Shown here piece by piece: positions 3,001 through 9,000 of a stretch of 64,000 nt of DNA (the stretch's first letter is position 1; each line of letters starts with the position of its first letter). A program made the position numbers. Where the stretch lies: the NCBI RefSeq assembly GCF_057098645.1, contig NZ_CM169472.1; one strand, given 5' to 3'.

Positions 3001-6000
3001 ACAGCAGTAAGACTTCCTTCCTGGTATTGCTTACGCCAGAGAAATAACTGGCTGGCTGCTACACCATGTTGCCGGGCAACGAGGGAGACCGTCATCCCCG
3101 GTTCAAAGCTCTGCTGAACAATTGCGATCTTTTCCTGTGTGGTACGCCGTCTGCGTTTCTCCGGCCCTAAGACATCAATCATCTGTTCTCCAATGACTAG
3201 TCTAAAAACTAGTATTAAGACTATCACTTATTTAAGTGATACTGGTTGTCTGGAGATTCAGGGGGCCAGGCTAATTGCATTAATATCTTGAATGGATTAC
3301 ATAGAGTTAATGTATCCAGTACTCCCTATTCTCTTGCATATAATACATGTTGCAACTTACATCTCAGCGCTATGAAAAAACACCACCTCTCTCTTTATGA
3401 AATTCTGGATTTACCAAGCGCTAATTTATCATTTCAATCTACCTTTAAGCATTGCATTTATCTCCCTACGAGGTCATACTTTAGGAAGTTAAATATGAAT
3501 GATAATATACCTACAGCGCGAAATCACAAACAATCGACTTGTATTACAGAAAAAAACATGCCTATCTTTTTAAACTTCACAGCAGGCAGTATCTTACCTG
3601 AGAATGAGCTAGCATCTTTACGTTATATTGTGCAGCAAAATCAAAATGATACTGTAATCATAAAAGAACGTTATAAAATGGATATCCGTTATATCGAATC
3701 AGTCAATGGTTTTACAGTAAATCCTGTATGCAGTAATCATTTCTCCATATTTATGGCGAGACAAAACACTATTGCTCGCAACCTGGAACAGCAGATCAAC
3801 AACGGACGAAGTTTTGCACAAATATCTCAGGATTTTATGCTTCAATTATCTTCAAATATAGGATGGAAAAAAGGGGCCGAAAACGCCCTTAAAAATAAAA
3901 TCCATTCTCATTCATTTGTTGTAAATCCTGATGAATTCTCTTGCGACACACAATTTCTTAAGTGCCCAATAACATTATGCGTTCCAGAAAAAGGGGTTTT
4001 TGTCAAGAACGCACTGAACTCCAACATATGCACTCTTTATGATAAGTCTGCATTCATGAATCTCACAAGAGAACATCTACCCCACCCTCTCAGTAGGGAA
4101 AAGATAGTAAAAGAAATGATTATTGAAAGGAATATGTGTTATTTTGACACCATAAGTCAGCATTTCATAATTATGGATGCAGACCAACAGAAACAGCATT
4201 GTAAATAAAATGTAATAATTACATACTATTAGTGATTCTCATGCATCGTAAGCGGCTCGCCAGAACCGTATTGATATTTACTGAGCGCTCAGATCAACTT
4301 TCCATGGCAACAGATCGCGTTCCCGGTTTGCCGGCCAGTCCTGGATATGCTCCCGCCGACAATATTAATGGCCAGGAAATGTTTAAAACAATGATTCTGT
4401 TTCCTAACCATCAAGTGTATATGCTGGCTCAATTACTCAATATCTATGGGTTGAGTTCTACCCAAAGTGGCTCTGTAGTCGCTTCTTCTTACAGTATGTT
4501 CAGGTGTTGCAGGCACAGTTGTGGAGCGTAGATGTGTTGTTGGTTTACCATGCTCTGGTACATAAAAAACGCCAGTGCCATGGTAACCTGATATAGAAAC
4601 GTTAATTCCGCGACGTTCAAACTCGGCATAGACGTGTTCTGCTAAAGAACTCTTTTGACCAAATAATGCCCTAGCCAACCAGCCGTTATTCATATTTGCG
4701 GATTTCTCTATTTCATCAGGAGAGAAGTCTTTGTTTTTTAATATGTTGGCTGAGTTACAGGATGTTAATCTGATATCATCAATCTCATGAAGATTATGTT
4801 GAACAATGCGGTCGACAATATCTGTCGGCGATAAAAATTCATCTCCACACTTAAGAAGTGGTAGACCAGCAGAACCATCCCCAGACAGATAAATTTTTTT
4901 GTATTTTCCTGGTGTTAAATCATCTGGCAGGATGGTTTTCATCTCTGTCGCTGTAATACTTATAGCTGCAGCAGCAACAACATCGCTATTACTTGATTGT
5001 AGATGGCTTTTATTTGCTCCAGGATATGTAAACTCCATTTTCCTTTCATCAAAATCTTGTTTTGTAGCATCATTCAGGAATAATAAATCATACGGTTTTT
5101 TCCCCGTTGTGACTCTTGAAACATTTTGGCCAAGAATATTAAGAGTATAGTCATTAACGGATTTCATTCCTAAAAAAACAAGTAATCCTTCTTTCTCTTG
5201 CGCTTTTTCGATTGTTCTCCCTGCTAAAGTTATTGGGATGGATTGAGATTGTTTTGTCGGAACTGATACGCTGGCGCTAATAGGTAGTAGGGTTCTTATG
5301 CTAAACATACAACCTCTTTCTTAATTTTCGAACCTGTTTAGGATTCTGTGTAAATTCAAAATAAACCTGTCTGAACATTCCTAACAAACATCCACCTGAC
5401 ATGACAACAAAAACCGGAGCCGGACTCCGGTTTTTGTGAAGCTGTCGGCTATTTCATTCCGCCAATATTTTCCCACGTCCCGTCAGCACGCAGGATTTGC
5501 AGCGGTTGAACCGCCCCGGGAATCCTGGAGACTAAACTTCCTGAGAAAGAGGTAAACAGGATGACTAAAAATACTCGTTTTTCCCCTGAAGTCCGTCAAC
5601 GGGCAGTCCGTATGGTTCTGGAAAGTCAGGGCGAATATGACTCACAATGGGCGACAATTTGTTCCATTGCTCCAAAGATTGGCTGTACGCCGGAGACTCT
5701 GCGTGTCTGGGTTCGCCAGCATGAGCGGGATACCGGGGGCGGTGATGGAGGGCTCACCACCGCTGAACGTCAGCGTCTGAAAGAGCTGGAGCGTGAAAAT
5801 CGTGAACTGCGCCGCAGTAACGATATCCTTCGCCAGGCTTCCGCTTATTTTGCGAAGGCGGAGTTCGACCGCCTCTGGAAAAAATGATGCCACTGCTGGA
5901 TAAGCTGCGTGAGCAGTACGGGGTCGGACCGCTATGCAGCGAACTGCATATTGCCCCGTCAACGTATTACCACTGTCAGCAACAGCGACATCATCCGGAT

Positions 6001-9000
6001 AAACGCAGTGCCCGTGCGCAGCGCGATGACTGGCTGAAGAAAGAGATACAGCGCGTATACGATGAAAATCACAAGGTATACGGTGTGCGTAAAGTCTGGC
6101 GTCAGTTGTTACGGGAAGGTATCAGAGTGGCCAGATGCACTGTGGCACGTCTCATGGCGGTTATGGGACTTGCCGGTGTTCTCCGGGGTAAAAAGGTCCG
6201 TACGACCATCAGCCGGAAAGCCGTTGCCGCAGGCGACCGCGTAAACCGTCAGTTCGTGGCAGAACGACCTGACCAGCTGTGGGTGGCTGATTTTACTTAC
6301 GTCAGCACATGGCAGGGCTTCGTCTATGTGGCGTTCATCATTGATGTGTTTGCCGGATACATTGTGGGGTGGCGGGTCTCATCGTCCATGGAGACGACAT
6401 TCGTGCTGGATGCACTGGAGCAGGCGTTATGGGCCCGTCGACCGTCCGGCACGGTCCATCACAGTGATAAAGGTTCTCAGTATGTATCGCTGGCCTACAC
6501 ACAGCGGCTTAAGGAAGCCGGATTACTGGCATCAACAGGAAGTACAGGCGACTCGTATGACAACGCGATGGCGGAGAGCATCAATGGTCTTTACAAAGCG
6601 GAGGTAATACACCGTAAGAGCTGGAAAAACCGTGCAGAAGTGGAACTGGCCACACTCACGTGGGTGGACTGGTATAACAATCGACGATTGCTGGAAAGGC
6701 TGGGCCATACTCCTCCGGCAGAAGCAGAAAAAGCTTATTATGCTTCCATCGGAAACGATGATCTGGCAGCCTGAGTTCACAGATAAAACACTCTCCAGGA
6801 AACCCGGGGCGGTTCACGTTATCACAGATTTCAATAATGTCACCGGGTGTGTGACGCAGCCCCTGTGACCCGAGCGTGAAATCCACCGTCTGCGTTTCCA
6901 GCAGTCCGGTCTTTATCACCCACAGCCCGGCACGGTGGGCCTGACCGCGACTGGTGCAGCCGAACGCATCCATCTTCAGCAGGTTGCGCCCGTAGCGCAG
7001 TATGGCTTCCGGGTCTTCCACCAGTTCCGTGGAGGTCTGCCAGCCGTTCTGCGGGTCGGTGTAATTCACCTCCACCGCCGTGTGGCGGTCCTTCAGGGCG
7101 CTGAAGCTGTAGCGAAACCCCACGCCGTTATCATCCACCACCACATCGCTGTTGGTGTACGGCCACACCACATCCGACGGACGGTCCTGAACGAACGTCA
7201 GCGTCTGGCCGTTCCATACCGGCATACAGCGCATCGCCGAGCAGAAATCACTGAGAACGTCCCACGCCTTACGCTGTTGTGACAGGTACGCATTAAAGGT
7301 CATCCGCGGCTCTGTGCCCCCGAAACCATCCGGGACCGTCTGGTCGCAGTACTGCGCAATGGCATACAGCGCCCATTTGTCCACGTCTGCCGCCCCCAGA
7401 CGTTTTCCCATGCCGTAGCGCGGGTGGGTCAGCATGTCCCACAGGCACCAGGCCGGGTTGTTGCTGTATGCCGGTTTCAGACTGCCGTCCCAGATACCAC
7501 TGTACGTGCGTTTTTCCGGGTCATAGTTTGACGGTACCTGGATGATGCGACCGCGGATATGGTAGTTCACCGTCATCTGCTGACCGCCAAACTGCTCCGC
7601 ATCCACCTGCAGCCCCACAATCGCCGTGTTCGGGTAGCACTGTTTCACATCGATGATTTCGGTGTATGACGACCAGAGCGTCTTATTCTGCAGCTGGTCC
7701 GTGGTGCTGTCCGCCGTCTCCCTGACCATCCGGATGTTAAAGGGCCGGGGCGGCAGATTATCCAGAATCACCGACGCCAGGAACTGCGAGGTGGTCTTGC
7801 CGTTAATGGTGACATCCTTTTCCGTCATCCATTTACCACCACGCTCAAGCTGAATCAGCAGGCGGACAGACGTCGGGTTACGGTCACCCTTTGAGGTGGT
7901 CTCCACCAGTGACTGCACCCCGAAGGTGACCCGCAGGCGGTCAATGTTCGCGGATGTAATGGTGCGCGTCACCGGCTTTGCCTTCGTCACTTCCACGCCC
8001 AGTGCGGTTTCAGCTCCGGAGGACTCAAAGCCTTCAGGTGGTGTCTGCTCCTGCTCCCCGGCGTGCCAGACCGCGGTCACACCATGTATCACAGGATTAC
8101 CGTCCGTGTCCGTCAGCGGGGTTTTGTTCACCAGGATACTCTGCAGCCCCTTCACCGGACCTTCAATCGGCCCTTCACCAATGGCGTCAATCACGCTCAT
8201 CATCTGCGTGGACTTAAGATTGTCCTTTGCCTCTACCGGCGTGTGCGCCTTGCCGCCCCCTTTACCCACTCTGTCCCCCTCTCCTGTCTGATGTCTGAAT
8301 CTGTTTATGCCAGAAAACAACAGGCACCCCGGAGGGTGCCTGTGTCATGACGGAATAAAATTTCTGAAACTCTTCACATTTCCGGCAATTGCCTGTAGCC
8401 GCAATAATGACGCTGCATTACTTTTTTGATGCCTGAAAAATAACTCCATAACGTTAATCTTCATCGTTCTCTCCCGCAGCTCCGCTAACTCTGCGGGATT
8501 TTTTTATTTTCATCCCTGCCCGATAACCACCACTTTCCCGTCTCCGCCCTCATCACGGGTGCTGATGTCCTGGGATATCCGTCGTGAACCAACCAGCATT
8601 TCACCGTAAGGCACCGGCATCGGGTTCCCCTGGGCAATCATGTTATCCAGCGAGGAAAAGTACGTGTTCTGTCTGCCGTTATCCGTGCTTTTGTACTCCG
8701 GTACTTTAGCCTTCGGGGCCAGCATCTGAGCCACACCACCCAGAATCATGCTGGCCCCCAGAGAAAACAGCATCGTGGTGGCAGAAAAACCACCGGCTGC
8801 CAGGGCTGAACCCCATAACGCCATTGATGCCCCGGCCGTGAAGAACGACCCCACGATGGCTGCCGCCCCCAGCACAATCTGCAGTCCGCCCTTTCCGGCC
8901 CCGGCCAGTCGCGGCACAATGTGGATGACCGTTCCCTCACCCAGCTGTTCGTGAAGACGGGCGTACACCGCCTCCGGTGCCGTGTCATCACCGGCAATAC

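Follow-up and report, generated by a model that had tools for sequence, protein, structure and literature searches.

IS629 is reported as the predominant insertion sequence (IS) across the compared strains of enterohaemorrhagic E. coli (EHEC), and O145:H28 carries iee (PMC5567499). In O157:H7, 62% of the IS629 copies sit in prophages and 21 of 47 IS629 sites have matching duplications (PMC3271280). One study attributes many genomic deletions to IS629, with reported IS-adjacent losses ranging from a few nt to >40 kb (PMC9943667), and this study as well as a bioRxiv review describes IEE as acting via IS excision. Deletions of the sort described here are already known as ordinary prophage erosion in EHEC.

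The stretch of DNA analysed here (64 kb, hereafter the window) comes from an O145:H28-like E. coli and carries a degenerate, lambda-like lambdoid prophage whose integration site adjoins ssrA. An IS629 copy at 5507-6816 of the window cuts the tail-tip gene J, and very probably marks an IS629-bounded deletion within the tail-fibre module of this prophage.

The IS629 copy and the truncated gene J

The left inverted repeat of the IS629 copy at 5507 was TGAACCGCCCCGGGAATCC... and the right one ended at 6816, with a chance expectation of 0 for such matches. The terminal inverted repeats were imperfect with a TG start and a CA end, TGAACCGCCCCGGG... at 5507 being met by its complement ending at 6816. 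Its orfA and orfB overlapped by 4 nt and orfB scored 315.7 bits against NCBIfam transpos_IS3 (cut-off 160), while a putative programmed frameshift is annotated in copies identical to this one. Plasmid copies annotated as 'IS629 transposase OrfA/OrfB' matched the element at 100% identity over its full length. In addition, this copy (copy 1) was identical to copy 3 of the window and to the IS629 of O145:H28 strains 99-3311 and RM12761. A promoter scan of 5250-7000 showed no sigma-70-like site as an IS-supplied promoter for the neighbouring EspS-like gene. The coordinates of all features are given in Table 1.

The original prediction placed the meeting point of the J frame with the IS629 inverted repeat at 6816 and the cut at about codon 484, and both were confirmed: the retained 5' part of J (J') was open for 484 codons and 1 nt, and its frame entered the right end of a complete IS629 directly at 6816/6817. 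The GTG start of J' was placed at 8269 by mapping the RefSeq annotation of J from the reference locus L001. The 484 residues of J' corresponded to positions 1-484 of the 1163 positions of NCBIfam lambda_TipJ (NF049904), with a score of 1122 bits which is lower than the full-length cut-off of 1950. The domains found were FNIII-A_GpJ (PF24801) and Phage-tail_3 (PF13550), the latter truncated at position 150 of its 164-position profile, and genes I and K were found directly upstream of J' as expected for TipJ. The frame departed from J at residue 484 and the receptor-binding C-terminal part was absent. Judged from its sequence, J' is a predicted pseudogene, a truncated member of TipJ, and the loss of J beyond the middle of Phage-tail_3, including the receptor-binding C-terminus, predicts that this prophage is unable to form a working tail tip.

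No record of the exact J'-IS fusion protein was found, and the homologues retrieved by a homology search matched the fusion protein only across the 484 J residues (90% coverage). Two higher-scoring matches of this search, P0001 and P0002, were rejected as fusions; both were J proteins containing internal duplications that seem to be artefacts of assembly. J was already a frameshifted pseudogene in the closest relatives, where it has a 493-bp internal deletion and a first stop at codon 503, so IS629 may have struck a gene that was already dead. This independent deletion begins at J nt 1501, 48 nt past the IS629 junction of the window at J nt 1453. It seems far-fetched that an expressed J'::IS629 ORF would act as a dominant-negative tail-tip fragment, or that J nt 1450-1500 would be a recurrent breakage hot spot. 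If true, J' expressed from the late operon (484 + 53 residues) could poison the tail assembly of near-identical lambdoid phages, either co-resident or superinfecting.

Table 1. Features of the window around the IS629 copy, with strand and supporting details.
Feature	Position	Strand	Details
ssrA tmRNA gene	746-1108	+	Chromosomal junction on the prophage tail side; retained
nleG7 type III effector gene	3558-4208	+	PF06416 T3SS_NleG; retained
EspS-like gene	4433-5308	-	291 aa; low GC (36-40%); 100% identical to references; retained
Tail-fibre assembly pseudogene fragment	5382-5448	-	67 bp; present in IS-free relatives too
3' remnant of 'phage tail fiber C-terminal domain' gene	5449-5506	-	58 bp; left edge of the deletion; mapped onto L001 annotation
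Left flanking triplet GGT	5504-5506	.	Native tail-fibre-gene sequence; reference reads GCAGCGGT followed by CTTACC
IS629 (IS3 family)	5507-6816	+	Complete 1,310-bp copy; terminal ends, domains, 100% match to annotated IS629
orfA of IS629	5561-5887	+	Intact; 108 aa; HTH_Tnp_1
orfB of IS629	5884-6774	+	Intact; 296 aa; rve
Extension of the J' frame into the right end of IS629 (antisense strand)	6656-6816	-	53 unrelated codons and a stop (6656-6658)
Right flanking triplet CGT	6817-6819	.	Native J sequence; reference reads GCATAGT followed by CGTTATCAC
J', 5' part of lambda-type tail-tip attachment gene J	6817-8269	-	1,453 nt (484 codons + 1 nt)
Tail assembly gene I	8510-9088	-	Intact; upstream neighbour of J'
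Tail gene K (JAB/NlpC-P60 peptidase)	9085-9822	-	Intact

Comparison with O145:H28 relatives

An alignment with related prophages, proposed along with the original prediction and run here on O145:H28 loci, showed both flanks of the IS in the same orientation with the intervening segment missing. Window positions 3273-5506 aligned with 3001-5234 of L001 (2,234 bp, 100% identical) and 6817-10662 with 9022-12867 of L001, of which the first 364 bp right of the IS were identical. Both flanks were colinear and in the same orientation in IS-free O145:H28 relatives, and had the same strand and order in L002 and L003. The segment missing relative to L001 was 5235-9021 (3,787 bp), and the agreement of colinear flanks that lie this far apart in relatives pointed to an IS-associated deletion, which bore out the earlier claim of an IS-mediated deletion or rearrangement rather than a simple insertion. 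The missing DNA amounted to approximately 3.8 kb compared to the closest relatives and approximately 4.3 kb compared to a relative with full-length J. It was annotated as the J 3' part, Ail/Lom, the tail fibre N-terminal gene (stf) and most of the tail fibre C-terminal gene, and a blastn search of the 64-kb window returned no match to it at E<1e-5.

The left flank was 100% identical to the reference while the right flank was 98.9% identical over 3.8 kb, with 41 of the 43 right-flank mismatches inside J' in a patch at 7181-8100 and near-complete identity from about 8100 to 11687. Since the left flank and the 364 bp right of the IS were identical to the reference, both flanks belong to one prophage lineage. 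Among the retained features, ssrA, the prophage/chromosome junction, dinI, nleG7 and the EspS-like gene showed 99.95-100% identity to the references. Strain 12E115 has the gene at 4433-5308 annotated as 'secretion protein EspS', while elsewhere it is a 'hypothetical protein', and its 291-aa product had no Pfam or NCBIfam match. The original prediction described the DNA on the far side of the IS as effector-like rather than J. This holds for the neighbourhood, where the EspS-like gene lies, but not for the first 125 bp left of IS629, which were tail-fibre-module remnants with no J. It also listed the receptor-binding part of J, lom and stf equivalents and the attachment end as lost; the J 3' part with the receptor-binding portion, lom and stf were indeed gone, but the attachment end is retained as the ssrA junction.

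The prophage has been damaged at other places as well. Its early region was lost, its lysozyme gene was disrupted and its int-side end was missing from the window, lost at a different IS629 copy. Other elements found in it were an IS2, an IS110-family element and two further IS629 copies. A functional tail tip is ruled out on the above prediction, although the prophage was already disabled in several other ways. The truncation has little significance beyond annotation. The ssrA junction and the type III effector cargo, nleG7 and the EspS-like gene, persist as IS629 erodes the phage machinery, and it is in this familiar way that EHEC prophages turn into fixed effector islands. The intact Ant protein was very widespread, and in all of the other loci that were read the gene order differed, with K-I' followed by a SopA-domain gene in place of J.

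Origin of the deletion

A simple IS629 insertion produces a direct target duplication of 3-4 bp. The 3-bp flanks of the copy at 5507-6816, GGT on the left and CGT on the right, formed no matched duplication, in line with the inequality first noted, and this is as expected for a copy that bounds a deletion. As a control within the window, IS629 copy 2 had the matched CTC/CTC duplication that a simple insertion should have, while copy 3, which also adjoins a deletion, had unmatched TGT/CTC flanks (+ strand). The left junction read GCAGCGGT followed by TGAACCGCC and the right junction GGCGGTTCA followed by CGTTATCAC. Comparison with the reference showed that each flank was native to the last base before the IS terminus. 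The end points of the deletion coincided to the base with the intact IS629 termini, and one IS stands in place of the missing DNA. Neither junction was contiguous in complete E. coli genomes (0 of 5,426), and exact-string searches of IMG/VR and metagenome contigs found neither; the junctions may therefore be useful in typing, as a marker of the lineage. Matches to the left junction at 100% coverage were rejected, as these were two pieces 226 bp apart which came from a different IS629 insertion in stf.

The most likely mechanism, with about an even chance of being correct, is recombination between two IS629 copies. The tail-fibre gene would have carried one copy at GGT and J another at CGT, both in direct orientation, the latter having probably arrived by a local hop. 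Homologous recombination between both copies would then have deleted the interval and one of the copies, so that the remaining IS is flanked by half of each duplication. A near-equal alternative, whose probability falls only a little short of even, starts from a single insertion, next to which a one-sided deletion associated with transposase or IEE would have spared the IS. IEE is described as acting via IS excision, by which, in our reading, the IS would normally be lost; here it was kept, so recombination between two copies fits at least as well. The intermediates would be expected to carry GCATAGTCGT followed by TGAACCGCC after a simple insertion into J, and GGCGGTTCA followed by GGTCTTACCACG after one into the tail-fibre gene. 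None of the 5,426 complete E. coli genomes had IS629 at one junction alone and no intermediate was matched in IMG/VR or metagenome contigs, and it is for this reason that we infer both which event came first and whether recombination or one-sided deletion took place. In addition, copies 1 and 3 did not differ from each other or from the reference copies (100% identity) and internal polymorphism thus cannot reveal a recombinant IS. A pre-existing deletion with later insertion of IS629 at the scar was rejected; it would give a matched duplication, and the flanks were instead native up to the IS terminus.

A simple insertion of IS629 into an otherwise intact J, with the remainder of the gene just beyond the IS, would explain why the J frame enters an intact IS end directly. 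However, the far side was the 3' end of the tail-fibre gene, which in relatives is located 3.8 kb further downstream, the GGT/CGT flanks were unequal and the J 3' sequence was absent from the 64-kb window, so this reading is next to impossible and is refuted by the colinear comparison. An inversion or translocation between IS629 copies, with the J 3'-lom-stf segment surviving elsewhere beside another IS629, would account for the unmatched flanks, another copy in the window being unmatched too, and IS629 is abundant in this genome, with three copies in the window. Such an event is nevertheless highly improbable, because an inversion would place foreign or inverted DNA on one side whereas both flanks were native neighbours in native orientation, and the flanks of copy 2 (CTC/CTC) and copy 3 (TGT/CTC) were not complementary to GGT/CGT in either orientation; relocation of the 3.8-kb segment is excluded for the 64-kb window.

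The difference in identity to the reference between the right flank (98.9%) and the left flank (100%), and a prophage body at 10-35 kb with no near-identical counterpart in complete genomes, would suit a chimeric prophage in which IS629-IS629 recombination joined the effector end of one lambdoid prophage to the tail genes of another. This too is very hard to credit: the 364 bp adjoining the IS were identical to the same reference and the divergence was confined mainly to 7181-8100, a patch well inside J', so that IS629 is not the boundary of the divergent DNA. There is also a slim chance of two successive one-sided deletions from an IS629 resident in stf. Such a copy exists in the related O145:H28 strains RM12761, RM13516 and RM12367-C1 in the same orientation and with 100% identity, where it has a GTT duplication at a site 226 bp within the segment that the window lacks. 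However, neither junction of the stf-resident copy is common to the window, the window flanks were nearer to the lineage without the stf copy (100% versus 99.955% on the left, 98.9% versus 97.1% on the right), and two events would be needed instead of one.

Comparison with known systems

In lambda J (gpJ, PDB 8iyk), residues 1-484 of 1132 were colinear with J' 1-484 (E about 1e-273), and the window prophage has the lambda-like gene order H-M-L-(ant)-K-I-J. Compared to a complete J, the window keeps 42% of 1,158 aa, with the distal 58% and its domains lost and 53 unrelated residues appended. In some O157:H7 strains, IS629 insertions were observed approximately 100 bp from the J nt 1450-1500 region. 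The IS629-associated small deletions and gene inactivation described in EHEC prophages (O157:H7 Sakai/EDL933) involve the same element, a prophage site and an iee-bearing host lineage. Unmatched triplets and an IS-abutting deletion are common to the window and known EHEC cases, the triplets being unmatched at more than half of the O157 sites. The IS was retained in the window, whereas IEE action would, in our reading, normally lose it, and neither of its junctions is represented in the genomes, IMG/VR and metagenome contigs searched.

The ssrA-adjacent effector prophage remnants of O145:H28 (99-3311, RM9154-C1, 12E115 and RM12761) lie at the same locus with 100% identical flanks and share with the window the gene order ssrA, dinI, nleG7, EspS-like gene, tail-fibre module and J-I-K-ant. 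These remnants, three of which have the 493-bp internal deletion in J, still contain lom, stf and the 3' part of J, and have IS629-associated truncations at other points (ant, stf and the ypjA side). The window lacks lom, stf and the J 3' part but retains far more of the prophage body (approximately 43 kb) than the O145:H28 remnants.

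Organization of the prophage at ssrA

The window begins with smpB and the tmRNA gene ssrA, and its chromosomal backbone was 99.9% identical to O145:H28 strain RM12761. The prophage genes were arranged in the order dinI, IS2, nleG7, a 291-aa low-GC gene (annotated as 'secretion protein EspS' in one relative), tail-fibre remnants and IS629 (copy 1), followed by J' (the 5' part of a lambda-type tail-tip gene J), I, K, ant, L, M, the tape measure and the remaining tail genes. Head genes, portal, terminase, an IS110-family element and lysis genes with a variant IS629 (copy 2) came next, and then a nanS-like gene, Q, ninG, HNH, a 590-aa ORF, a third IS629 (copy 3) and a truncated ypjA autotransporter gene. 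The attachment end, which the original prediction had considered lost, was retained: ssrA, the prophage junction, dinI, nleG7 and the EspS-like gene were present with 99.95-100% identity to the references. The missing prophage end is the opposite, int-proximal one, and the ssrA 3' end occurred only once in the window.

The RM12761 counterpart of the 590-aa ORF is two hypothetical genes (296 aa and 275 aa), with ~9 nt indels in the alignment. A tRNA gene was called by ARAGORN as tRNA-Met, and its counterpart in RM12761 was annotated as tRNA-Ile, perhaps the usual ambiguity over lysidine-modified tRNA-Ile2.

Features of the prophage region, with positions in the window
Feature	Position	Strand	Details
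ssrA (tmRNA gene)	746-1108		after smpB
IS2	1943-3273		1,331 bp; ORFs of 301 aa and 136 aa; between dinI and nleG7
IS629 copy 1	5507-6816	+	complete, 1,310 bp
orfA of copy 1	5561-5887	+	108 aa; HTH_Tnp_1
orfB of copy 1	5884-6774	+	296 aa; rve; NCBIfam IS3-family transposase
J'	6817-8269	-	GTG start at 8269; 1,453 nt (484 codons plus one base)
ant	9876-10754		intact
IS110-family transposase gene	28969-30165		DEDD_Tnp_IS110 and Transposase_20; between terminase genes and lysis region
Variant IS629 copy 2	32917-34226		33 differences from copy 1 (97.5% identity); matched CTC/CTC duplication
590-aa ORF	41754-43526		TTG start; beside copy 3, just inside prophage; no Pfam match
IS629 copy 3	43886-45195	inverted relative to copy 1	identical in sequence to copy 1; flanks TGT/CTC unmatched
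ypjA autotransporter gene	45196-49083		3' end absent
tRNA-Met	51988-52063		CAT anticodon

Truncation of J at an IS629 copy

Copy 1 was bounded on the left by TGAACCGCCCCGGGAATCC and on the right by the complementary inverted repeat, for which no chance matches were expected, and it was 100% identical over its full length to copies annotated as 'IS629 transposase OrfA/OrfB'. The original observation was correct in all its elements, namely a J frame running into the IS629 end and unequal flanks. The frame of J' was open up to 6817, in agreement with a truncation at about codon 484, and continued into copy 1 for 53 unrelated codons to a stop at 6656-6658; the triplets flanking copy 1 were GGT (left) and CGT (right). 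The 484 residues of J' corresponded to positions 1-484 of 1163 in NCBIfam lambda_TipJ and aligned with residues 1-484 of 1132 of lambda J (PDB 8iyk). Pfam matches were found with FNIII-A_GpJ and with Phage-tail_3, the latter match breaking off at position 150 of the 164 in the profile. On the left side, copy 1 abuts a 58-bp tail-fibre gene remnant and a 67-bp tail-fibre-assembly pseudogene fragment. The DNA beyond the IS had been described as effector-like, which did not hold for this abutting DNA but did for a gene starting 198 bp away.

In the closest relatives (99-3311, L001 7491-10474; also RM9154-C1 and the further locus L005), J carried a 493-bp internal deletion with the first stop at codon 503. 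This deletion starts at J nt 1501, 48 nt past the IS629 junction of the window; nt 1502-1990 of the full-length RM12761 J (1,158 aa) are missing, with a 4-nt overlap at the joint. Since J was already a pseudogene in these relatives, the IS629 truncation may have struck a gene that was no longer functional. In O157:H7 strains 7409, F1273 and TX 376-2, an IS3-family element lies in J ~100 bp away. The closeness of these J lesions may be a coincidence or may mark a fragile stretch.

Comparison with O145:H28 references

Several O145:H28 genomes with the same ssrA prophage and without an IS at the copy 1 site served as references. Window positions 3273-5506 matched 3001-5234 of the 99-3311 locus with 100% identity, and positions 6817-10662 matched 9022-12867 with 98.9% identity in the same strand and order; the flanks were likewise colinear with RM9154-C1 and RM12761. 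Native reference sequence reached the last base before each IS terminus, ending in GCAGCGGT on the left and resuming with CGTTATCAC on the right. The reference segment between them (5235-9021; 3,787 bp) is annotated with the J 3' part, an Ail/Lom gene, a 'prophage tail fiber N-terminal domain' gene and the greater part of a 'tail fiber C-terminal domain' gene, and a blastn search of the 64-kb window for it gave no match. The predicted loss of distal J and lom/stf was upheld within the window. Against RM12761, the missing stretch was ~4,281 bp, discounting that strain's own IS629.

Of the 43 mismatches to the closest references across 6817-10662, 41 fell at 7181-8100 (~900 bp, inside J'), which looks like mosaic recombination from another lambdoid J allele. 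The 364 bp beside the IS and nearly all of ~8100-11687 were identical to the reference lineage with which the left flank agrees at every base.

Origin of the deletion

Copy 1 bounds a deletion, as 3.8-4.3 kb of colinear prophage DNA is replaced exactly by one intact IS with unmatched flanks; the earlier preference for a deletion over a simple insertion was upheld. There is about an even chance that the deletion arose by recombination between two direct-repeat IS629 copies, located at GGT in the tail-fibre gene and at CGT in J, with loss of the interval and of one IS copy. Almost as likely, IS629 inserted only once, and transposase- or IEE-related activity then deleted the DNA adjacent to one of its ends. 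Both routes predict an identical final sequence, and copies 1 and 3 and the reference copies do not differ from one another, so that no footprint of recombination can be read from them. Intermediates were sought among 5,426 complete RefSeq E. coli genomes, IMG/VR and metagenome contigs and none was found.

Copy 1 is unlikely to derive from the IS629 resident in stf (side tail-fibre gene) of RM12761-type strains, which has the same orientation and a GTT duplication and lies 226 bp within the stretch missing from the window; that IS629 has neither junction in common with the window and belongs to a lineage with less similar flanks. A seam between two prophages was rejected, given the clustering of the right-hand mismatches at 7181-8100 and the identity of the 364 IS-adjacent bp to the left-flank lineage, and an inversion was set aside because both flanks are native neighbours in native orientation; in addition, the flanks of copy 2 (CTC/CTC) and copy 3 (TGT/CTC) did not complement GGT/CGT.

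Other insertion sequences and prophage decay

Compared with RM12761, 5.7 kb was absent at copy 3, comprising ninE, a methyltransferase gene, ninB, ren, P, truncated O, RM12761's own IS629 and the ypjA 3' end. On this comparison, copy 3 marks a second, independent IS629-bounded deletion, which removed the early/int side of the prophage. Joining the flanks of copy 2 gave a 179-residue open frame resembling lambda-type lysozyme, so that copy 2 is read as a simple insertion interrupting the endolysin gene. IS2 had a matched 5-bp duplication (ATTGC) and was missing in all three O145:H28 loci whose alignment spans its site (99-3311, RM9154-C1 and RM12761). In 99-3311 (L001 12868-14177) and likewise 12E115, an IS629 with unmatched AAC/GGT flanks links truncated ant straight to ypjA, with nearly the whole prophage deleted, and in RM9154-C1 (L002 12872-14181) a 95%-identical IS3-family relative with a CAC/CAC duplication is a simple insertion in ant.

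Overall, the prophage was disabled repeatedly, through the truncation of J, the splitting of the lysozyme gene and the deletion of the early region and int end, and it also received IS2 and the IS110-family element. Searches of the complete genomes, IMG/VR and metagenome contigs did not find the IS629 junction of the window, which could be used as a marker in typing.

Only 21 of 47 IS629 sites in O157:H7 had matching duplications, and 62% of the copies were in prophages (PMC3271280); iee is present in O145:H28, and a comparison of EHEC strains reported IS629 to be their predominant IS (PMC5567499). According to this literature, a prophage-located IS629 with unmatched flanks is routine. The copy 1 event is ordinary, a further deletion bounded by IS629 in a decaying EHEC prophage that carries effectors, and it points to no novel type of element or mechanism.
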